A stretch of DNA of 11,853 nucleotides from a virus (lineage: Duplodnaviria; Heunggongvirae; Uroviricota; Caudoviricetes), in the IMG/VR virus record IMGVR_UViG_2636416131_000003, positions 1 through 11,853 of that record. One strand, given 5' to 3'. This document shows, piece after piece, positions 1-11,853 of this stretch. Position 1 is the first letter of the stretch; each line of letters opens with the position of its first letter. The position numbers and the translations under genes are program-made. The notes under the pieces are model-generated. The model was not told the origin of the DNA. It made no database searches and saw nothing but the letters and a program-made list of their open reading frames with translations.

Positions 1-3832
<3,832 letters not shown>

Positions 3833-3858
<26 letters not shown>

Positions 3859-4378
3859 TCAGCAACCCCGGTATCAGTTCATCCAGCGCGGCTGCTTTGT
3901 TCATGGCTTTGATGATATCCCGTTTCAGGAAATCAACATGTCGGTTTTCCAGTTCCGGAAAACGCCGCTGCACCGACAGGGGGATCCCGTCGAGAATACT
4001 GGCAATTTCACCTGCGATCCGCGACAGCACGAAAGTACAGAATGCGGTTTCCACCACTTCAGCGGAGTCTCTGGCATTTTTCAGCTCCTGTGCGTCGGCC
4101 TGCGCACGCGTAAGTCGATGGCGTTCGTACTCAATAGTCCCTGGCTGGAGATCTGTCTCGCTGGCCTGCCGCAGTTCTTCAACTTCCCGGCGCAGCTTTT
4201 CGTTCTCAATTTCAGCATCCCTTTCGGCATACCATTTTATGACGGCGGCAGAATCATAAAGCACCTCATTACCCTTGCCACCGCCTCGCAGAACGGGCAT
4301 TCCCTGCTCCTGCCAGTTCTGAATGGTACGGATACTCGCACCGAAAATATCAGCCAGCTGCTTTTTGTTGACTTCCAT
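3833..4378 (-). CDS. nu1: Terminase small subunit Nu1 (181 aa)
   Basis: MEVNKKQLADIFGASIRTIQNWQEQGMPVLRGGGKGNEVLYDSAAVIKWYAERDAEIENEKLRREVEELRQ... matches lambda Nu1 (the DLP12 equivalent is NohD) in sequence and length. The 3' end overlaps the A start, as in lambda. Confidence 0.93.
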
Positions 4379-4379
4379 T

Positions 4380-4600
4380 GTTCATTCCACGGACAAAAAC
4401 AGAGAAAGGAAACGACAGAGGCCAAAAAGCTCGCTTTCAGCACCTGTCGTTTCCTTTCTTTTCAGAGGGTATTTTAAATAAAAACATTAAGTTATGACGA
4501 AGAAGAACGGAAACGCCTTAAACCGGAAAATTTTCATAAATAGCGAAAACCCGCGAGGTCGCCGCCCCGTAACCTGTCGGATCGCCGGAAAGGACCCGAA
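4380..4600 (-). other. cos: cos site (cosB, cosN, cosQ); the 12-nt cohesive-end sequence cosN is at 4556-4567
   Basis: The + strand at 4556-4567 is AGGTCGCCGCCC, the reverse complement of the lambda cohesive end GGGCGGCGACCT. Flanking sequence matches the lambda left end (CGCGGGTTTTCGCTATTTATGAAAATTTTCCGG...) and right end (...CCGACAGGTTACG) as I recall them. It lies immediately upstream of Nu1. Confidence 0.85.
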
Positions 4601-4766
4601 AAATGATAATAATTATCATCTACATATCACAACGTGCATCTACGCCATCAAACCACGTCAAATAATCAATTATGACGCAGGTATCGTATTAATTGATCTG
4701 CATCAACTTAACGTAAAAACAACTTCAGACAATACAAATCAGCAACACTGAATACGGGGCAACCTC

Positions 4767-4961
4767 ATGTCAACTAAGAACAGAACCCGCAGAACAACAA
4801 CCCGCAACATCCGCTTTCCTAACCAAATGATTGAACAAATTAACATCGCTCTTGAGCAAAAAGGGTCTGGGAATTTCTCAGCCTGGGTCATTGAAGCCTG
4901 CCGTCGGAGACTAACGTCAGAAAAGAGAGCATATACATCAATCCAAAGTGATGATGAATAA
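4767..4961 (+). CDS. Small hypothetical protein (64 aa), predicted ribbon-helix-helix (Arc/MetJ/CopG-like) DNA-binding fold
   Basis: ORF MSTKNRTRRTTTRNIRFPNQMIEQINIALEQKGSGNFSAWVIEACRRRLTSEKRAYTSIQSDDE has a basic N-terminus. The segment IRFPNQMIEQINIALEQKGSGNFSAWVIEACRRRL aligns by eye with the Arc/Mnt pattern (R-x-P, hydrophobic helix, G-x-S-x-N, second helix). I believe a similar small ORF exists near the right end of lambda, but I cannot confirm that. The ribosome-binding site is weak. Confidence 0.5.
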   Translation: MSTKNRTRRTTTRNIRFPNQMIEQINIALEQKGSGNFSAWVIEACRRRLTSEKRAYTSIQSDDE

Positions 4962-5320
4962 ACATCCCGGTTTCTTCCACCATCGCACCGGAAAAGCGAC
5001 TATGAGGGTAACCCTGCGTCTGTCAGCACAGTAAAACCCGGTGTGCATCGTTTTTGATTATTCCCGCACACTCACGCAGAAGGAATTCCCCGTCGGGCTA
5101 CGGTCATGGTTAATGCGGGAATACGGCGACGATACAGCGCAGCTAAAAGGGTAATGGACAGAAAGAGCGGTTTATTTCATTCCACAGGATTCTGAGTGCC
5201 CCCCTCCTCCAATAGGCTGAGCATCCACCTATATAGTTTTAATTTTCATCAATCCATTTAACTATCGTTTAATTGTTGTCACATAGGATTCTGCCGTTTT
5301 TAACAATGCAGGATAATAAG

Positions 5321-5614
5321 ATGAAAAAAATGTTGTTTTCTGCCGCTCTGGCAATGCTTATTACAGGATGTGCTCAACAGACGTTTACTGTTGGAAACAA
5401 ACCGACAGCAGTAACACCAAAGGAAACCATCACCCATCACTTCTTCGTTTCGGGAATTGGACAGGAGAAAACTGTTGATGCAGCCAAAATTTGTGGCGGC
5501 GCAGAAAATGTTGTTAAAACAGAAACCCAGCAAACATTCGTAAATGGATTGCTCGGTTTTATTACTTTAGGCATTTATACTCCGCTGGAAGCGCGTGTGT
5601 ATTGCTCACAATAA
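5321..5614 (+). CDS. bor: Bor lipoprotein (serum-resistance protein, 97 aa)
   Basis: MKKMLFSAALAMLITGCAQQTFTVGNKPTAVTPKETITHHFFVSGIGQEKTVDAAKICGGAENVVKTETQQTFVNGLLGFITLGIYTPLEARVYCSQ matches lambda Bor/DLP12 BorD as I recall it. It has a lipobox (ITGC) and is oriented opposite to the lysis genes, as in lambda. The ORF-track start at 5273 is an N-terminal extension. Confidence 0.9.
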   Translation: MKKMLFSAALAMLITGCAQQTFTVGNKPTAVTPKETITHHFFVSGIGQEKTVDAAKICGGAENVVKTETQQTFVNGLLGFITLGIYTPLEARVYCSQ

Positions 5615-5645
5615 TTGCATGAGTTGCCCATCGATATGGGCAGCT

Positions 5646-6107
5646 CTATCTGCACTGCTCATTAATATACTTCTGGGCTCCTTCCAGTTGTTTTTGCATA
5701 GTGATCAGCCTCTCTCTGAGGGTGAAATAATCCCGTTCAGCGGTGTCTGCCAGTCGGGGGGAGGCTGCATTATCCACGCCGGAGGCGGTGGTGGCTTCAC
5801 GCACTGACTGACAGACTGCTTTGATGTGCAACCGACGACGACCAGCGGCAACATCATCACGCAGAGCATCATTTTCAGCTTTCGCATCAGCTAACTCCTT
5901 CGTGTATTTTGCATCGAGCGCAGCAACATCACGCTGACGCATCTGCATGTCAGTAATTGCCGCGTTCGCCAGCTTCAGTTCTCTGGCATTTTTGTCGCGC
6001 TGGGCTTTGTAGGTAATGGCGTTATCACGGTAATGATTAACAGCCCATGACAGGCCGACGATGATGCAGATAACCAGAGCGGAGATAATCGCGGTTACTC
6101 TGTTCAT
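5646..6107 (-). CDS. rz: Rz inner-membrane spanin (153 aa)
   Basis: [61 protein letters not shown]... matches lambda Rz (DLP12 RzpD) as I recall it. The start overlaps the endolysin stop (ATGA). Confidence 0.9.
5705..5887 (-). CDS. rz1: Rz1 outer-membrane lipoprotein spanin (60 aa), embedded in the +1 frame of Rz
   Basis: [60 protein letters not shown] has a lipobox (VVGC) and a proline-rich core. The fully embedded arrangement is as in lambda Rz/Rz1. Confidence 0.9.
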
Positions 6108-6601
6108 TGCTGACCCCACAAACAGATTTCACGCTCAATCTCACGACGAGTCATGAGACCTTTCCATTGCTTACCGCCAGCATATGTCCAGCGACGTAGC
6201 TGATCACATGCGCCTTTGATATCGCCCTGGTTTATTTTGCGAAGAAGCGTCGATGTTCTGAAATTGCCAGCACCCACGTTGTAAACGAATGAGTAAAGAG
6301 CGCCGCGCATTGTTTCCGGTATATCGACTTTGATGTACGGGTTAATTTGTCTGGCGACCGTGGCAAGGTCTTTATTCAGGAGGGCTTTGCATTCTGCTTT
6401 GGTATACGTTTTACCGAGCATGATGTCTTTTCCTGTATGCCCGTGACATACAGTCCATACACCAACAATATCTTTGTATGGTATGTAGCTGACACCTTCC
6501 AGACCATCGTTACCACTTGGGCCAGTAATTAACACTGATGCTATAGCAATTGCTCCGCCACCAATAGCAGCAGCAACGGCTTTTCGTAATGATGGAGGCA
6601 T
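6104..6601 (-). CDS. rrrD: SAR (signal-arrest-release) endolysin, T4-lysozyme-family muramidase, phage-21 R / DLP12 RrrD type (165 aa)
   Basis: [59 protein letters not shown]... has a Gly/Ala-rich weakly hydrophobic N-terminal SAR domain followed by a lysozyme catalytic region. It matches K-12 RrrD as I recall it and is not the lambda R transglycosylase. Confidence 0.88.
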
Positions 6602-6816
6602 TATTCACCTCTCGCAGCCTTGCGCTTATCTTCTTTAATCTTGAAATAAAGGTTTGTCAGGTACGTCAGCAGGCCAAATACCAGGCTACCCAGCACACCT
6701 ATTGCTGCCCACTGTGAGGGCGTGACTTTATCGAGCAGCTGTAAAAACCAGTAACCGGCACTACCTGCTGAGGTGCCATAGGCGACACCCGTTGTTAACT
6801 TATCCATGGATTTCAT
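6601..6816 (-). CDS. essD: Pinholin, phage-21 S21 / DLP12 EssD type (71 aa), with dual-start motif MKSM
   Basis: [71 protein letters not shown] has two TM segments and Met1/Met4 dual starts. A GAGGTG Shine-Dalgarno sits just upstream of 6816. The stop overlaps the R start (TAATG). The ORF-track start at 6861 is probably an artefactual extension. Confidence 0.85.
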
Positions 6817-6899
6817 AACCCCACCTCGCAGACAAAGCGGGTGTAAATTGAGGGAATACAACGTATCGCAAAAAAGCAGAAACGTAACAGACTCGGAGT

Positions 6900-7404
6900 C
6901 AGTGAATAACTCAGGTATTGAGTTATCAGCTAATATCGAGACTCAAAAAATGGAAAAACCAGCTCGACGGCGGGTTTAAGCTGTGTGACGAAGTAACCAC
7001 TCTTAACAGCATAACCAATTTTTTACGTACGTAAACCACTGAATGATATTTATGAGAATGCTACCGAGTGTTCAAAACACCACCACAAATACATAAGAAA
7101 ACCTCAACAAATAACCAATAAATAATTTCAGACGTTATTTTTAGTTGATTTAAATTAAACTGCCGAATTATAGAACCTCCATAAATAACAACCATTAATA
7201 TAAATTAGCTAATAGGTTTATTTTTGTTCAAATAAGAGCCATAAATAGGTTTCGATAGAAAAAGTTCAGATAAAAATAGAGATCTACTTCACAAATTAAA
7301 TGAGAAACTAAAACTTACATCTTGAAATAATCACATTGATTAGATGAATATTTATCGCGCAGTGACATCATTTTTTAATAATAGTTCAAAAAAAAGGGCT
7401 CACG
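6900..7404 (+). promoter_or_regulatory. AT-rich upstream regulatory region of the porin gene (promoter not precisely mapped)
   Basis: About 500 bp of very AT-rich sequence lies immediately 5' of the porin ATG, with no ORF. It contains a perfect 14-bp palindrome TTTACGTACGTAAA at 7021-7034. This is typical of H-NS or OmpR-regulated porin promoters (inference). Confidence 0.4.
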
Positions 7405-8502
7405 ATGAAAAAATTAACAGTGGCAATTTCTGCTGTAGCTGCATCAGTACTGATGGCGATGTCTGCTCAGGCAGCTGAAATTTATAATAAAGACAGTAAC
7501 AAGCTGGATCTGTACGGGAAAGTTAATGCCAAGCACTACTTCTCCTCTAATGATGCAGATGATGGTGATACTACTTATGCCCGTCTTGGCTTCAAAGGTG
7601 AAACCCAAATCAACGATCAACTGACTGGTTTCGGTCAGTGGGAATATGAATTCAAAGGCAACCGCGCTGAATCTCAAGGTTCCTCCAAAGACAAAACCCG
7701 TCTTGCATTTGCAGGCCTGAAATTCGGTGACTACGGCTCAATCGATTACGGCCGTAACTACGGTGTAGCATACGACATCGGTGCGTGGACTGACGTTCTG
7801 CCAGAATTCGGTGGCGATACCTGGACCCAAACAGATGTGTTCATGACTGGTCGCACCACTGGTGTTGCAACCTATCGTAACAACGACTTCTTTGGTCTGG
7901 TTGATGGTCTGAACTTTGCTGCTCAGTACCAAGGCAAAAACGATCGTAGCGATTTCGATAACTACACTGAAGGTAACGGTGATGGCTTCGGTTTCTCTGC
8001 TACCTATGAATACGAAGGATTCGGTATCGGTGCAACTTATGCGAAATCTGATCGTACCGACACTCAAGTTAATGCAGGGAAAGTTCTTCCTGAAGTATTT
8101 GCTTCCGGTAAAAATGCAGAAGTTTGGGCCGCAGGTCTGAAATATGACGCTAACAACATTTACCTGGCCACTACCTATTCTGAAACCCAGAATATGACTG
8201 TATTTGCTGATCACTTCGTTGCTAATAAAGCCCAAAACTTCGAAGCTGTTGCACAATATCAGTTCGATTTCGGTCTGCGTCCGTCCGTTGCTTACCTGCA
8301 ATCTAAAGGTAAAGATCTTGGAGTATGGGGCGATCAGGACTTAGTCAAATATGTTGATGTAGGTGCAACCTATTACTTCAACAAAAATATGTCTACTTTC
8401 GTTGATTACAAAATCAACCTGCTTGACAAAAATGACTTCACTAAAGCACTCGGTGTAAGCACTGATGACATCGTTGCTGTAGGTCTGGTTTACCAGTTCT
8501 AA
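7405..8502 (+). CDS. nmpC: Outer-membrane general porin, NmpC/OmpD/Lc family (365 aa precursor), apparently intact
   Basis: [46 protein letters not shown]... has a signal peptide with an AQA-A cleavage site, porin motifs ([31 protein letters not shown]) and the C-terminal ...GLVYQF with terminal Phe. Its position between Q and S, antisense to the late genes, is as for nmpC in DLP12. There is no IS5 interruption here. Confidence 0.9.
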
Positions 8503-8510
8503 TCTGATTA

Positions 8511-8550
8511 CGAAAAAGATATGTTGCGGGAGGCGTTGCCTCCCCAACAT
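8511..8550 (-). terminator. Putative intrinsic terminator on the minus strand (candidate tR'-like terminator downstream of Q)
   Basis: The minus strand reads ATGTTGGGGAGGCAACGCCTCCCGCAACAT followed by ATCTTTTTCG. This is a GC-rich stem (GGGAGGC/GCCTCCC plus flanking pairs) followed by a T5 run, about 150 nt downstream of the Q stop. Confidence 0.45.
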
Positions 8551-8640
8551 ATAAGTGGCTCCCTCAAGCCACTTCCTTTAGAAGCACAACCTTGCTTCTA
8601 ACTATATAAACCTTCTGTTATATATTACCCTTTATTTTTG

Positions 8641-8667
8641 GGGGCGTCTCAACGCCCCATTTTTAAT
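8641..8667 (+). terminator. Rho-independent terminator of the porin transcript
   Basis: GGGGCGTCTCAACGCCCC (6-bp GC stem) is followed by ATTTTTAATAATTTTT on the + strand. It lies about 140 nt after the porin stop, following three smaller hairpins. Confidence 0.6.
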
Positions 8668-8691
8668 AATTTTTAGTAAACAATTGGCATA

Positions 8692-9075
8692 TTAATTAGA
8701 GTTATTAACAACGATATCCATCTCTAACCGGATATCTAATGCCATTAACATCCCTTCAATTATGCCCTCAGCCTTCTGTAACCTTTTCCCGATATAACCA
8801 TCAGAGCAGCAATGCTTACCTGCCAGTGACATGAATGTCATACCGACTACATAATAATCTACTAATAAATCGTGCAAATCGCTGTTGTTCTTTTTCAGAC
8901 GGGCCATGCACCCGCAAATAATCATCGCGTCATCGTCACAACATTGCGGGCGAGATTTTACTTTTGAAGTAATTAATCCCTTAAAACCGGCGGCAATGGA
9001 CGACCAGGTCACATCTTCATGATTATTAGCCGCCCACGCTCCCCAACGCTCAAGAACCATCTGAATATCACGCAT
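8692..9075 (-). CDS. quuD: Late-gene antiterminator Q (phage 82/21-type, DLP12 QuuD-like, 127 aa)
   Basis: [62 protein letters not shown]... is Cys-rich (zinc-binding). It sits immediately after rusA-ylcG and upstream of the lysis cassette, and matches K-12 QuuD as I recall it. The start could alternatively be 9090 (MWSKL...). Confidence 0.75.
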
Positions 9076-9160
9076 CAACTTACTCCACAAAAATCAGACC
9101 AGAACGCCAATTACAAGCAAAAATCAACAAAACAGTATTAGTTGATTGTTATCTCTGACT

Positions 9161-9301
9161 TCATACTCCTGCTCCTGTCAGGGTTTTGGCGTAATTCTTC
9201 AGTATTCGGTAATCGGTCAAAACAGAACCGGGGAAACGATATAAGCGCAGATGCCCCCAGCGGTGGCGAAGAAGTTCTGCCATATAAAACTCAAACATCA
9301 T
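9161..9301 (-). CDS. ylcG: Small protein YlcG (46 aa)
   Basis: Hand translation of the minus strand gives [46 protein letters not shown]. It is below the ORF-track size cut-off. The start overlaps the rusA stop. Length and position match ylcG between rusA and quuD in DLP12. Confidence 0.6.
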
Positions 9302-9660
9302 TCATTCCCCATTTCGGTGATGGTCAGTTCCAGCCTCCCACCTTTGGTAACAGGCATCTTCACAACGCGGTAATCAACGACCTGAGCATCATCCAGCCAG
9401 AAACCTGCTTTAGTGAGTGCGTCAAAAGCGGCTTTTTGCAGATTATCCAGGTCACGGCGACGGCGATCCGGCATGTGGCACTCAATGCGGATTTTCACAG
9501 GCATAGCCAGGCCGATATCCAGCATTGCGTTTTTAATGATTCGGGCGACGTTATCGCGGTATGCCTGCCCCTCTGCGCTGACGTGCGTGCGCCCGCGATT
9601 ATGGCGGTAATAGCGATTATTGCTCGGAGGCCAGGGTAATGTGATGCTGTAGGTATTCAC
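9298..9660 (-). CDS. rusA: Holliday-junction resolvase RusA (120 aa), GTG start
   Basis: [120 protein letters not shown] matches E. coli RusA as I recall it. The first codon at 9660-9658 is GTG, overlapping the ybcO stop (GTGA). Confidence 0.92.
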
Positions 9661-9946
9661 GCCTTAATAACCCCCTCTTTCAGCCAGATAACCTGTGTTC
9701 TCGCCATACCTTCCAGCGCGCATTCTTTTGCATATGCAGCATCGACAAAATGTGTGCGGCGGTCGATTTCGTCGTGGCAGGCAGAACATGCAATGGTGGC
9801 AATCAGGTCTGGCGGTTTGGTACCGGTGCCGCACAATCCAGTCAGCCGGATATGTGCCAGTACAGACGTTTCAGGGTTGCCATTACATACGCAGGGATTC
9901 TTACCTGGCATTCCCGACTACGCGCTGCTTTTCTCAAATCAGCCAT
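9657..9946 (-). pseudogene. ybcO: ybcO-like nin-region Cys/His-rich protein (DUF1364-like putative nuclease), apparently disrupted by a 1-nt frameshift
   Basis: A strong RBS (AAGGAGG) precedes the ATG at 9946 and gives MADLRKAARSRECQVRIP, which then runs out of frame and stops after 34 codons. The downstream frame (ORF-track 9657-9911) carries the remainder: ...VCNGNPETSVLAHIRLTGLCGTGTKPPDLIATIACSACHDEIDRR...VIKA. Joining the two with one restored nucleotide near 9892 gives a 96-aa protein. Confidence 0.65.
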
Positions 9947-10109
9947 GATTCCTCCTTGCTGCCAGTCGCAACCATTTTTTATCAACCAGGCTGGCGGTAT
10001 ATCCGAGCAGTGTTGGTATTTCGGAAGGCTTCAGCTCCGGTTTACGCTTACGACGATCTGGTACTCTGTAGATGTGTCCGTTCATGACACGAATAAGCGG
10101 TGTAGCCAT
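9939..10109 (-). CDS. ninE: NinE protein (56 aa)
   Basis: Hand translation gives MATPLIRVMNGHIYRVPDRRKRKPELKPSEIPTLLGYTASLVDKKWLRLAARRNHG, matching lambdoid NinE as I recall it. The ATG overlaps the ybcN stop, and the 3' end overlaps the ybcO RBS and start. Confidence 0.85.
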   Translation of the reverse strand: MATPLIRVMNGHIYRVPDRRKRKPELKPSEIPTLLGYTASLVDKKWLRLAARRNHG

Positions 10110-10564
10110 TACGCCTCCTGCTTGTCGCGGAGCAGCTGGAACTCGCAGCTCTGCGGAATAGTCAGGTGGCAGCCAATATTCACCGCCCAGGCTTCAACCT
10201 TACACAGGAAGACATACATCTCTCCGGTATCAAGATCGGAGGTATGGCGTAACGACTGGACGGTGGTGACCTCGCCGGACACGACATCTACACGGTCTTT
10301 GCTTTCGTAGCCGAGATAGGTGTGCTTCATCGCGTCTTTGACCCACTCAGGCGTAGCGAAGGTCTTGCCGCGGGCGATGAGATATTCGCTGATCTCCGTG
10401 TACCACATGTGGCTGAGCGCGTTCTGCGACAGGCTGCGCTTCTCGCGCCACGGCTTAACCTGCAGGCGTAAGCATTGCCCGGCATCCAGCAATGGCTGAA
10501 TCTGCTGGCCGATGGCCGCGAAGTTACCGCGATGGAGTTTGATGCCGTCTACTGGCAGAGTCAT
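10109..10564 (-). CDS. ybcN: NinB-like (lambda Orf-family) recombination protein / YbcN-like DNA base-flipping protein (151 aa)
   Basis: MTLPVDGIKLHRGNFAAIGQQIQPLLDAGQCLRLQVKPWREKRSLSQNALSHMWYTEISEYL... has the S-x-x-Q-N motif and length typical of NinB. A GGGAGG Shine-Dalgarno lies 6 nt upstream of the ATG. The position upstream of ninE matches DLP12 ybcN. Confidence 0.75.
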   Translation of the reverse strand: MTLPVDGIKLHRGNFAAIGQQIQPLLDAGQCLRLQVKPWREKRSLSQNALSHMWYTEISEYLIARGKTFATPEWVKDAMKHTYLGYESKDRVDVVSGEVTTVQSLRHTSDLDTGEMYVFLCKVEAWAVNIGCHLTIPQSCEFQLLRDKQEA

Positions 10565-10828
10565 ACGGCCTCCCTAACGGAAACCGCAGAATGCAGAAAA
10601 TCGCAGGTGCATTTCTGCATCTGTGACAAGGTGATGAGTTCAGATTGTGGTCGCATTTAAGTCCCCTTAAATGCGCAGAAGTCACCGGAGTTGTTCAGGC
10701 TCCGATGAGAGGATTATGGCGGATTGATTACGATAAATCAAAACTATCTTGAAGCCAAAACAGTGATCTTCGCTTTAAAAACCTTGTATACTTTCACCTA
10801 ATCACAGCCAGAACTATGGATCTAACCA

Positions 10829-11206
10829 ATGACCAACAAAGAAAACAAAGATAAATATATTAACAAGTTCAAGAAAGAGCTTTCAAAATATATACAACCA
10901 ACTGCTGGAGTGGACATTCAATTATTTAACTCTAAGGATGGTGGTGGTGTAATTAAAGCCACTTTGAATAGAAGTGGAAAAAGAAAATCATCAATTGCAG
11001 GTAATTTTACTAAATTAGGTGAGGCAATTACCTCGAGTGGGCAGAGGGTTTTTGGTGGTGATCTATCAAATGTAAATTTTTACGGAACAAATACGATTTT
11101 TGATGGAGATACAATATTTTTAATTAAATCACCTGATTCAGAGGAGTGGTCATCACAAAAAGCTTCCAAAGACGTAGAGGGCATCGTATTTGGAGGGAAA
11201 AAATGA
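10829..11206 (+). CDS. Hypothetical protein (125 aa), Lys- and Gly-rich, predicted soluble; first gene of an AT-rich two-gene cassette
   Basis: ORF MTNKENKDKYINKFKKELSKYIQPTAGVDIQLFNSKDGGGVIKATLNRSGKRK...GIVFGGKK is in an AT-rich region (roughly one-third G+C by eye, against more than 50% in flanking phage genes). It is on the strand opposite to the surrounding nin-region genes. A TATACT -10-like hexamer lies at 10787-10792. I do not recognise the family. Confidence 0.6.
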   Translation: MTNKENKDKYINKFKKELSKYIQPTAGVDIQLFNSKDGGGVIKATLNRSGKRKSSIAGNFTKLGEAITSSGQRVFGGDLSNVNFYGTNTIFDGDTIFLIKSPDSEEWSSQKASKDVEGIVFGGKK

Positions 11207-11631
11207 TTAACATTACTACTAAGGATGGCACTCAAGTCAGTGGTGAAGTAAGAGATCTAGTAATTCTTCTTGAAACTGATGGAAAAACGGTGTCTGATTA
11301 TTTGCAGCCAATCCCTCCCAAAAAAGATACACACTGGAGCATGATTTTCATTCCGGTAGCAATTTATATACTACTTAATCTTGTATACATTATTGCTCAC
11401 CCATTATTTCCTGAAAAATATCTAAAAACATCAACATCTATATTTCTATTCATTTCCTTCATATTAAGTGCAATAGTAGCATATTTTGTTTTCCATAAAC
11501 ATAAATCTGCCACTCTATCCATATGCAGCTTAGTGTTCTTAGTGTTAATTGTAGGTGCTAACGTAGGGTTTATCAGTTACAGCGACCTAACACAAAAAGC
11601 GACGCAAAAATTAGATAGTTTGTCTAAATAA
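11203..11631 (+). CDS. Hypothetical membrane protein (142 aa): soluble N-terminal region of about 55 aa plus three predicted transmembrane helices; translationally coupled to the upstream ORF
   Basis: The ATG at 11203 overlaps the stop of the upstream ORF (ATGA). The protein MINITTKDGTQVSGEVRDLVILLETDGKTVSDYLQPIPPKKDTHWSMIFIPVAIYILLNLVYIIAHPLF...TSTSIFLFISFILSAIVAYFVFHKHKSATLSICSLVFLVLIVGANVGFISYSD... has three hydrophobic stretches of about 20-23 aa. It shares the AT-rich composition of the upstream ORF. The ORF-track start at 11146 is an upstream extension in the same frame. Confidence 0.6.
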   Translation: MINITTKDGTQVSGEVRDLVILLETDGKTVSDYLQPIPPKKDTHWSMIFIPVAIYILLNLVYIIAHPLFPEKYLKTSTSIFLFISFILSAIVAYFVFHKHKSATLSICSLVFLVLIVGANVGFISYSDLTQKATQKLDSLSK

Positions 11632-11709
11632 TTATGTTGCCATGCGAAGTATGCATGGCTGCATGTCTGCCTTCCATTTAAAATGGGCTAAGACCTATAA
11701 CCCTAAATA

Positions 11710-11853
11710 TTATTCTTTATTATCTTCTTTACCACTTCGCGCCATCCCGTTCGACTTGTTGCGGTTGTACTTCGCCTGAAGCTGCTGGATTGGCGTCGGG
11801 CCATGCTCGGCAGCCGGTGCTGCAATCGCCCGGCGCACAGGCGGTACTGGTTT
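11710..11853 (-). CDS. 3' end of an unidentified minus-strand gene entering from beyond the window (possibly an early-region or replication gene); frame uncertain
   Basis: GC-rich sequence at the window end is open in all three minus-strand frames for about 130 nt. One frame ends ...QLQAKYNRNKSNGMARSGKEDNKE with a stop at 11712-11710. Composition resembles the phage backbone, not the AT-rich island. I cannot assign a family. Confidence 0.3.
   Translation of the reverse strand, partial: KPVPPVRRAIAAPAAEHGPTPIQQLQAKYNRNKSNGMARSGKEDNKE

Follow-up and report, generated by a model that had tools for sequence, protein, structure and literature searches.

Where does late transcription begin in a lambdoid prophage that carries a porin gene between its antiterminator gene and its lysis genes, and does it have to cross that gene? 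This question is raised by an 11,853-nucleotide stretch of viral DNA (positions 1 to 11,853 of IMG/VR record IMGVR_UViG_2636416131_000003), hereafter the window. An earlier reading of the sequence alone, which we call the original prediction, recognized an intact NmpC/Lc-type porin gene on the plus strand between the Q and holin genes, both on the minus strand. It reasoned that late transcripts, starting at a pR'-like promoter located downstream of Q, must traverse the whole porin gene in antisense orientation. The gene arrangement was borne out by our analysis (Table 1). The late promoter homologue, however, was found on the holin side of the porin.

Table 1. Features of the region between the Q gene and the lysis genes, in window coordinates
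Feature	Position	Strand	Description and basis
Holin/antiholin gene essD, S21 (P21) type	6601-6816	-	Dual starts 6816 and 6807; Pfam PF04971, E 3.5e-35
Late leader	6817-6944	-	From tR' to the holin start codons
Late promoter block	6945-7035	-	Homologous to the pR'/qut/first terminator annotated in 933W; also to H-19B, Sp5 and PhiR55_1
Porin cargo cassette, ~1.68 kb	7041-8715	.	Separates the Q core from the late promoter
Porin promoter and 5'UTR region (PnmpC)	7206-7404	+	In the AT-rich region 7041-7404; placed by homology to K-12
SigmaE-like promoter GAACTA-N16-TCACT	7355-7387	-	Published essDp "+1" at 7355, derived from the construct and primers in PMC7918800
Intact nmpC/lc-type general porin gene	7405-8502	+	365 aa; 23-aa signal peptide; C-terminal YQF
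Structured porin 3'UTR, IpeX equivalent	8503-8669	+	167 nt; hairpins 8519-8552, 8555-8572 and 8580-8599, then the terminator
Hairpin followed by CUUUUUCG on the Q-sense strand	8512-8552	-	Fold -21.3 kcal/mol, z -4.9
Intrinsic terminator of the porin transcript	8641-8668	+	GGGGCGT-CTCA-ACGCCCC, then a T run; terminator scan and fold
Q antiterminator gene, quuD allele	8692-9075	-	127 aa; Pfam PF06530, E 4e-53

The porin and its cassette

The porin matched the Pfam family Porin_1 (PF00267) over the full profile (1-337 of 337, E 1e-156) and scored above the NCBIfam cut-off for the OmpC subfamily (526 versus 484 bits). Since residues 24-365 aligned end to end with complete PDB chains of mature OmpC, OmpF and PhoE, the gene is intact. 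Its product is a general bacterial porin of the OmpC/NmpC/OmpD group, and homology suggests that it assembles into trimeric diffusion pores of the outer membrane. An antisense ORF of 187 aa (7738-8301), listed as "hypothetical" in some phage records, is entirely contained in the porin coding sequence, in opposite orientation, and was treated as spurious.

The porin gene occupies the position of the nmpC/lc locus, between quuD and essD and on the opposite strand. It is the classical lysogenic-conversion porin of a DLP12-type lambdoid prophage and is already known. The module is 100% identical to that of SE11, where the gene is called "porin", and to those of other genomes annotated quuD - porin - essD - rrrD. 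Of 5426 complete E. coli genomes, 2392 (~44%) contain at least 80% of the module, which also occurs in plaque-forming lambdoid phages such as Turner, PhiR26_1, mEp332 and 434B (this analysis and PMC9119081). In the DLP12 (qsr') prophage of K-12 and in phage 434B, Q (quuD), the porin, the intergenic regions, the pR' block and the lysis genes have the same order and orientation, with 95.6-99.7% DNA identity to the window's module. Their nmpC copies are cut by IS5 after codon 346, an interruption that the original prediction had noted for K-12, whereas the window's copy is intact. Unlike DLP12, the window's prophage still has the terminase genes and a portion of the portal gene. Since an IS element cuts the portal gene, the prophage is defective, and its lytic programme may never run in this host.

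A porin moron is textbook material, known as nmpC in DLP12 and lc in phage PA-2, and its finding here therefore adds no new biology. According to Schnaitman and colleagues, lc of PA-2 reportedly encodes an OmpC-family porin that is expressed in the lysogen, and its IpeX-type 3'UTR is said to lower OmpC, PA-2's own receptor. PA-2 lc combines lysogenic conversion with superinfection exclusion. The "Escherichia phage PA2" among our sequence matches is an unrelated Stx phage and not PA-2.

DNA similarity to phages 933W and H-19B is confined to two segments, the Q core (8743-9077) and the pR' block at 7036-6954. Since these flank the porin, a cassette of ~1.68 kb sits between the Q core and pR'. 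As expected of a moron, it separates elements that adjoin each other in related phages, and its base composition deviates: GC content is 26-33% across ~7050-7350 upstream of the porin, compared with ~50% in the flanks. The original prediction had assigned some 500 bp of AT-rich upstream DNA to the porin, and the stretch between holin and porin (6862-7404) measures 543 bp. This assignment holds for ~7041-7404 but not for 6945-7035, which is the late promoter block, or for 6817-6944, which is the late leader.

The predicted autonomy of the moron is supported by homology to the PnmpC promoter of K-12. There, the region from -199 to -1 of nmpC contains a CRP-activated sigma70 promoter mapped by 5'RACE, with sites for CRP, OmpR, IHF and MprA (PMC11677980). 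A consensus promoter scan of window positions 6500-9200 passed no site for a porin promoter. At the other end of the gene, the moron has its own intrinsic terminator on the plus strand (-14 kcal/mol, z -3.2), again as predicted. The 3'UTR has the features of IpeX in that ~167 nt of the porin transcript lie between the porin stop codon and the porin terminator, and its segment 8503-8640 is strongly folded (-47.9 kcal/mol, z -8.6). IpeX itself is a 167-nt RNA that is made within the porin transcript and lowers OmpC (PMC12197685). An Rfam scan of the whole window returned no family for IpeX or for a pR' leader. The sole Rfam match in the window was isrC/IS-end at 186-308.

Expression from the resident prophage, which the original prediction had proposed together with altered outer-membrane permeability or receptor profile, is documented in strains with the K-12 allele and changes their outer-membrane porin profile (PMC11677980, PMC8144880, PMC12197685). 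Where the gene is intact, NmpC amounts to ~2% of the proteome; the protein is abundant in NCM3722 (PMC8144880), and both its abundance and the activity of PnmpC have been published (PMC11677980, PMC8144880).

The Q gene and a probable 933W-type late promoter block

We then determined how the two segments that flank the cassette compare with their counterparts in other phages. Q belongs to the Q933/H-19B-type family (PF06530), with 75-78% DNA identity to the 933W and H-19B genes and a distant match to the Q21 structures 6P18 and 6JNX. The protein aligns with the Q proteins of H-19B and 933W up to LEMD and then diverges, and those of 2E9 and PhiR55_1 part from it at the same codon. The conserved Q core stops at codon 120 (...RLEMD, base 8716), while the last seven codons and the stop codon (8692-8715) are specific to the cassette.

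The minus-strand block at 7036-6954, on the holin side of the porin, is the sole homologue of a 933W-type pR' block in the window. It shares 76-77% identity with 933W, Sp5 and H-19B (E 1e-10 to 9e-12) and 86% with PhiR55_1 (E 2e-21). Its -35 element is TTTACG (7035-7030) and its -10 element TATGCT (7013-7008), with a predicted start near 7001/7000. The initial transcribed motif TAAGAGTGGTTAC at 7005-6993 is invariant in the alignment after TTTACG-N16-TATGCT. A tR'-like hairpin, CCCGC/GCtGG at 6974-6959, and a T tract at 6958-6945 complete the block. Among 67 distinct module sequences, mean identity in the block was 97.0%, compared with 86% and 92% in its flanks; no non-coding segment on the porin's holin side is better conserved. 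Conservation of the -35, the -10 and the initial transcribed region points to a cognate promoter of the Q933/H-19B type, and the block is likely a functional Q target in this allele.

The position of the block differs from that of its relatives. The Q family and the pR' block are common to the window and the Stx phages 933W, Sp5 and H-19B. In these phages pR' overlaps the Q stop, whereas in the window the -35 lies ~1.68 kb from the Q core and pR' neither adjoins nor overlaps the 3' end of Q. Their stx genes follow pR' on the late strand, where Q-modified polymerase transcribes them. Conversely, the window's porin precedes pR', has the opposite orientation, and would depend on its own promoter alone for transcription. 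It is thus not placed between the pR' start and the lysis genes, as the block lies beyond it. Since the cargo separates the late promoter from Q, the assumption that pR' abuts Q misplaces the promoter, which leads to wrong predictions of the accessory genes that are switched on or silenced at induction.

Two further comparisons concern termination downstream of pR'. The tR' hairpin has a folding energy of -5.4 kcal/mol in the window, where the stem reads GCTGG, compared with -11.6 kcal/mol in K-12, where GCGGG is intact. The stem is mutated in the window's allele and in ~30% of related loci, and this G-to-T change suggests that termination, and hence Q dependence, may be weak in this allele. 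In Sp5, the PR' start was mapped close to Q by dRNA-seq, and a 3' end was mapped at a second terminator 258 nt downstream (PMC7547250). We placed the Sp5 start by this stated distance; the published coordinates do not match the current RefSeq version. No counterpart of the second Sp5 terminator was found in the window, and a scan of the late leader (6817-6944) revealed no further terminator-like site. The leader ends at essD, the first gene of the lysis cassette, whose assignment also follows from the annotation of the identical SE11 and 434B genes.

Transcription of the porin and the lysis genes

Taken as a whole, it is very probable that the locus consists of an autonomous nmpC/lc conversion cassette set between Q codon 120 and the cognate pR', and that late transcription never crosses the porin. 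The plus-strand unit would comprise a CRP-activated sigma70 promoter in the AT-rich region, the intact porin gene and the 167-nt IpeX 3'UTR, with its own terminator predicted to stop transcription 24 nt short of the Q stop codon. Inserted at this point, the cassette converges with Q and diverges from pR'. In the lysogen, the host would transcribe the cassette, so that NmpC is made and OmpC is lowered via IpeX. Upon induction, minus-strand transcription would start at pR', near 7001/7000, and RNA polymerase acted on by Q would pass the weak tR' hairpin into S, R, Rz and onward. Since late transcription would start downstream of the porin, late transcripts would never cross it. This layout would explain how a strongly expressed porin gene under host control can lie between Q and the lysis genes and leave lysis timing undisturbed, because the cassette points away from the holin and has its own terminator before Q.

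By comparison, we regard as very improbable the arrangement of the original prediction, in which pR' and a terminator occupy the minus strand of 8503-8691, and late transcripts run antisense through the porin to the holin and silence the porin by collision or antisense RNA. It has a precedent in lambda, phage 21 and 933W, where pR' is found within about 10-80 nt of the Q stop, 7 nt after Q in phage 21 and overlapping the stop in the 933W annotation. A stable tR'-like hairpin followed by CUUUUUCG is also present on the Q-sense strand at 8552-8512, and a weak TTGAGA-N19-TAATAT can be read by eye at ~8651-8621. However, the consensus scan called no promoter-like site on the minus strand in the 190 bp past Q (8503-8691), and the candidate read by eye is poor, with a 19-nt spacer. 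Besides this candidate, the search next to Q yielded only a 9-mer, ATATAACAG, in common with Lambda_2E9, and we rejected this location for the late promoter. A five-phage alignment found no similarity between 8503-8691 and the Q-downstream regions of phages with closely related Q. These 190 bp change with the cargo, and in the window they are the 3'UTR and terminator of the porin, travelling with it. The homologue of the cognate pR' lies at 7036-6954 instead, and the published Q-responsive lysis promoter is likewise on the holin side, so that both candidates for the late promoter lie beyond the porin coding sequence as seen from Q. A late promoter situated downstream of the porin gene is what the original prediction itself had named as counting against it.

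That second promoter is the basis of another explanation. The DLP12 lysis operon promoter, essDp, has been published as dependent on Q and RpoE (PMC7918800, citing Rueggeberg 2013, 2015). From the "-121 to +650" construct and its primers, as given in that paper, we derived a "+1" at 7355, between the porin ATG and the holin. This differs from the 933W-like start at ~7001/7000, although both are on the holin side of the porin coding sequence. Possibly, then, the 933W-like block at 7035-6945 is a decayed relic, and essDp and Q drive the lysis cassette, as proposed for K-12. The sigmaE-like motif at this "+1" is a good one, and the mutated tR' stem is also what decay would produce. Yet the block is better conserved than its flanks, its -35, -10 and initial transcribed motif are intact, and it occurs together with the Q core across ~20 cargos, plaque-forming phages included. 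The sigmaE motif is part of the AT-rich DNA that goes with this cargo and would therefore be missing from phages that combine the same Q with other cargo. We therefore consider decay of the block unlikely.

Early transcription may nevertheless reach the porin from the Q side. N-antiterminated transcripts from pR could run past Q and antisense through the porin, adding a modest early shut-off of the porin to the cassette architecture favoured above. In lambda, N-modified transcription from pR runs on beyond Q. Immediately upstream of the cassette, the minus strand carries ybcN, ninE, ybcO, rusA, ylcG and Q, and a single imperfect terminator-like hairpin (8552-8512) separates Q from the 3' end of the porin. 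An N-type antitermination system is an assumption here, as the immunity and N regions lie outside the window. Against early read-through, uninduced K-12 showed no measurable change when transcription from quuD toward nmpC was blocked by a strong terminator inserted between the two genes (PMC11677980). This result agrees with little transcription reaching the porin in antisense from the Q side before induction. On balance, early read-through is plausible, if slightly short of an even chance. It would be the only source of antisense porin RNA. Of the antisense transcription upon induction that had been predicted, the part attributed to late transcripts is not supported, and the part that early transcripts from pR might contribute is conceivable.

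The hairpin past Q may itself act as a terminator for non-antiterminated transcripts that leave Q, before they enter the porin in antisense. The consensus scan missed it because its stem is imperfect. With its T run, it resembles a tR' just past Q, a superficial fit to the originally predicted model.

Antisense crossing by late transcripts does apply to other genes of the window. Lambda bor is, like the porin, a small lysogenic-conversion moron on the strand opposite the late genes, and the window carries a homologue, iss/bor, on the plus strand at 5321-5614. Since bor lies within the late operon, between Rz and Nu1, late transcripts cross it antisense. This arrangement holds for bor and ylcI in the window, unlike the porin.

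Cargo between the Q core and pR'

We also looked at what occupies the junction between the Q core and pR' in other loci. Searching IMG/VR with the Q protein yielded only loci with identical Q, all with the porin, and therefore reports on conservation rather than diversity; almost all of these 80 loci have the pR' block beyond the porin. Cargo diversity was instead drawn from a search with the pR' block motif, which retrieved 120 loci. Whatever the cargo, the Q core was found upstream in 100 of them. The gap between the Q core and pR' was at most 60 nt in 24 of these 100 loci, and the remaining 76 carried an insert of 0.6-2.4 kb. A Q core to -35 distance of 1660-1680 nt was shared by 37 loci, nearly all of which (34) contained the porin.

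The inserts represent ~20 unrelated cassette types, 18 of which are antisense to Q and pR'. Among the cargo are the Kiwa defence system, PDC-S20, PDC-M53A, NA37-domain gene pairs, lipoprotein-like genes and an esterase. Many cassettes have no family match, and most of the alternative cargo proteins tested had no match in PADLOC or Pfam. The median GC content of the cassettes is 39%.

We tentatively propose, while holding it to be somewhat doubtful, that lambdoid phages of the Q933/QuuD family have a cargo hotspot located exactly between the Q core (...LEMD) and pR', with the porin cassette as one of its alleles. Such a hotspot was not found described in the literature that we searched. If it is one, the position and strand of the cargo would insulate it from late transcription and keep its promoters from reading into the holin gene, and the uncharacterised cassettes would be candidates for new anti-phage or conversion functions. 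Reuse of the junction by other cassettes, known defence systems included, offers a lead to new prophage-borne functions. A fixed junction with many accessory and defence cassettes has likewise been described for P2-like phages and P4-like satellites (Rousset et al. 2022, PMC9122126), in a different phage group and at a different junction from that between the Q core and pR'.

Prophage layout and the probable late promoter of Q

The window represents an E. coli lambdoid prophage of the DLP12 type. In a genome comparison, positions 377-10734 were colinear with the prophage of SE11 (97.8% identity). For positions 6500-9150 the identity to SE11 and many further genomes was 100%, and a match spanning at least 80% of this segment was present in 2392 of the 5426 complete E. 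coli genomes compared. The module, which runs from Q/quuD through the porin and the late promoter block to essD, is also found in the sequenced plaque-forming phages Turner, PhiR26_1, mEp332, the ev phages and 434B.

Genes and probable late promoter elements in the window
Feature	Position	Strand	Remark
portal gene, W, large terminase, Nu1/nohD, Rz/Rz1, rrrD		-	rrrD: SAR endolysin
ylcI	4767-4961	+	DUF3950; within late operon, between Rz and Nu1
bor/iss	5321-5614	+	within late operon, between Rz and Nu1
essD	6601-6816	-	P21-type holin
tR' T tract	6958-6945	-	
tR' hairpin	6974-6959	-	
invariant motif TAAGAGTGGTTAC	7005-6993	-	
pR' -10	7013-7008	-	
pR' -35	7035-7030	-	
porin	7405-8502	+	
Q/quuD	8692-9075	-	
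ylcG, rusA, ybcO, ninE, ybcN	further along from Q/quuD	-	

The cognate late promoter of Q, pR', overlaps the Q stop codon as annotated in 933W, and its -35 lies 7 nt past the Q stop in phage 21. This proximity holds in the characterised relatives but not in the window, where a consensus scan of the 190 bp past Q yielded no promoter-like site and a search for similarity to the post-Q DNA of phages with nearly the same Q found none. These 190 bp consist of the porin 3'UTR and terminator. The Q protein of the window and those of H-19B/933W, Lambda_2E9 and PhiR55_1 can be closely aligned as far as ...RLEMD (codon 120, base 8716; the Q core) and diverge completely beyond it. In H-19B and 933W, Q runs on for 24 codons past LEMD, and the pR' -35 falls within these codons.

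When the module was compared with related loci by local BLAST, a pR' homolog appeared on the holin side of the porin, at 7036-6954 on the minus strand. Its identity to the block holding pR', qut and the first hairpin is 76-77% for 933W, Sp5 and H-19B (E-values 1e-10 to 9e-12); a block in PhiR55_1 is 86% identical to it (E-value 2e-21). The aligned block comprises TTTACG-N16-TATGCT, the invariant motif, and a CCCGC-N6-GCGGG hairpin with a T tract; the -10 is TATGCT in the window versus TATCAT in 933W. The Sp5 PR' start, determined by dRNA-seq, is 'closely associated with Q', and 258 nt separate it from the 3' end found by Term-seq (PMC7547250). We placed it 7-8 nt past TATCAT on the Sp5 sequence, and by alignment its equivalent in the window would be at about 7001/7000. 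Across 67 distinct module versions the block was 97.0% conserved, versus 86% and 92% for its flanks, and nearly all of 80 IMG/VR loci with the exact window Q had it on the far side of the porin. In both respects the block behaves as a conserved partner of Q.

A second start has been published for the same interval. PMC7918800, citing Rueggeberg 2013 and 2015, places the DLP12 S-R-Rz/Rz1 lysis operon under a Q-type antiterminator and RpoE, and a 'regulatory region from -121 to +650' was cloned in that study. Mapped on K-12, its primers give an amplicon of exactly 771 bp and put the '+1' at window position 7355 on the minus strand, just downstream of a sigmaE-like GAACTA-N16-TCACT. This '+1' differs from the 933W-like start, but each of the two falls in the interval bounded by the porin ATG and the holin. 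The original prediction that late pR' transcripts read antisense through the porin is contradicted by these positions, as both the pR' block and the published '+1' are downstream of the porin and the DNA past Q offers no promoter-like site. A late promoter downstream of the porin had been named beforehand as an outcome that would refute the prediction.

The porin cassette (~7041-8715) thus separates the Q core from pR', pointing towards Q and away from pR'. Under the arrangement we propose, late transcripts start downstream of the cassette and do not cross it. By analogy with lambda, the sole remaining antisense crossing would come from early pR transcription that is antiterminated by N and continues past Q. 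A Q-sense imperfect hairpin with a T run at 8552-8512 (-21.3 kcal/mol, z -4.9 by folding) would lie in the path of that transcription and may be a stop for non-antiterminated transcripts. Separating nmpC from quuD by a strong terminator in K-12 made no measurable difference (PMC11677980).

The layout originally pictured for the porin does occur for bor/iss and ylcI. Since both are plus-strand genes inside the late operon, late transcripts must cross them antisense.

The 3' arm of the tR' stem (the first hairpin beyond pR') varies among the compared loci (L009-L088, L003 and L001). It reads GCTGG in the window, SE11 and 23 IMG/VR loci with the same Q, GCGGG in K-12, 434B and the majority, and GCAGG or GTGGG in others. 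The change from GCGGG to GCTGG is predicted to weaken the hairpin from -11.6 to -5.4 kcal/mol. These recurrent changes suggest selection for leakier, less Q-dependent lysis-cassette expression in resident prophages.

A cargo junction between Q and pR'

What remains of interest at the locus is its displaced late promoter, together with a hotspot for cargo genes. An IMG/VR search with the invariant pR' motif returned at least 120 loci (L089-L208). Among the matches listed, the Q core lay upstream on the same strand in 100 of 120 loci, at a distance from the -35 of 60 nt or less in 24 (933W-like) and of 600-2430 nt in 76. The inserts in these listed matches represent roughly 20 unrelated cassette types, with genes antisense to Q and pR' in 18 types and sense in two (one-sided binomial p ~2e-4, from raw ORF calls in a non-independent sample). 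The porin was the commonest cargo among the matches listed (34 loci); others included KwaB with a membrane partner (Kiwa system), PDC-S20, PDC-M53A, NA37-domain gene pairs, an alpha/beta hydrolase (esterase) and lipoprotein-like genes, while several listed cassettes had no family match. PhiR55_1 likewise carries an antisense ORF at this junction. Lambda_2E9 carries an antisense lipocalin and a ybgA-like gene there, and its pR'-like GTTTACAATCGTAAAAA...TATGAT is found only beyond both. We found no description of this junction as a hotspot in the literature searched, although one may exist.

The hotspot loci (L089-L208, L004 and L005) correspond to window positions 7041-8715. Directly after Q, Lambda_2E9 has a terminator (L004 3355-3383; AGCCAGCCTCCCCAAAGGCTGG then a T run) that closely resembles the Sp5 tR' mapped by Term-seq (L209 976-1006; GCCAGCCTCCCCCAGTGGCTGGC then a T run). 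Unlike the Sp5 tR', it is located upstream of the pR'-like promoter.

The porin and the prophage ends

The porin is the well-studied nmpC/lc moron, intact in this strain, which is an ordinary finding. As predicted, its ORF is complete: Pfam Porin_1 was covered over the full profile (E-value 1e-156), the NCBIfam OmpC subfamily cut-off was exceeded, and residues 24-365 aligned end to end with the mature OmpC, OmpF and PhoE chains (PDB). Its own plus-strand intrinsic terminator (8641-8668), the AT-rich upstream region (GC falling to 26-33%) and the IS5 disruption of K-12 nmpC, after codon 346 and shared with 434B, were likewise borne out.

The moron and lysogenic-conversion readings, both established long ago, also hold. 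Upstream of K-12 nmpC, a stretch of 199 bp carries a sigma70 promoter with a start determined by 5'RACE. CRP activates this promoter and OmpR, IHF and MprA repress it; its activity is sufficient to drive the transposase gene of the IS5 within nmpC (PMC11677980). NmpC makes up ~2% of the proteome of NCM3722, a K-12 strain with intact nmpC, and is its major porin under carbon limitation, with OmpC more than 10-fold below MG1655 (PMC8144880). The DLP12-derived ipeX RNA is described as a 167-nt part of the porin transcript that reduces OmpC (PMC12197685). In the window, the interval between the porin stop codon and the terminator end (8503-8669) is also 167 nt, and its predicted structure is a series of consecutive hairpins (-47.9 kcal/mol, z -8.6).

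The most variable gene across 67 distinct module sequences was the porin, whose coding sequence had a mean identity to the window allele of 92.4%; the values for Q and the 3'UTR were 99.8% and 97.6%. This variability would fit surface-loop diversification under phage or immune pressure. A 187-aa minus-strand ORF lies antisense within the porin gene (7738-8301). Its counterparts are labelled 'hypothetical protein' in some phage records, such as 434B, and it is probably an artefact of porin codon composition.

The prophage is interrupted within the portal gene (ORF of 457 aa), where SE11 colinearity stops at 377. The left 377 bp match an IS3-family element end present in thousands of E. coli genomes, within which an Rfam isrC match falls (186-308, minus strand, 150 bits). 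Beyond the right end of colinearity at 10734, positions 10735-11853 have 32-37% GC and contain two plus-strand ORFs, 10829-11206 (125 aa) and 11146-11631 (161 aa, probably membrane-spanning), neither with a significant Pfam match. Located upstream of ybcN, this region may represent a further antisense cargo.
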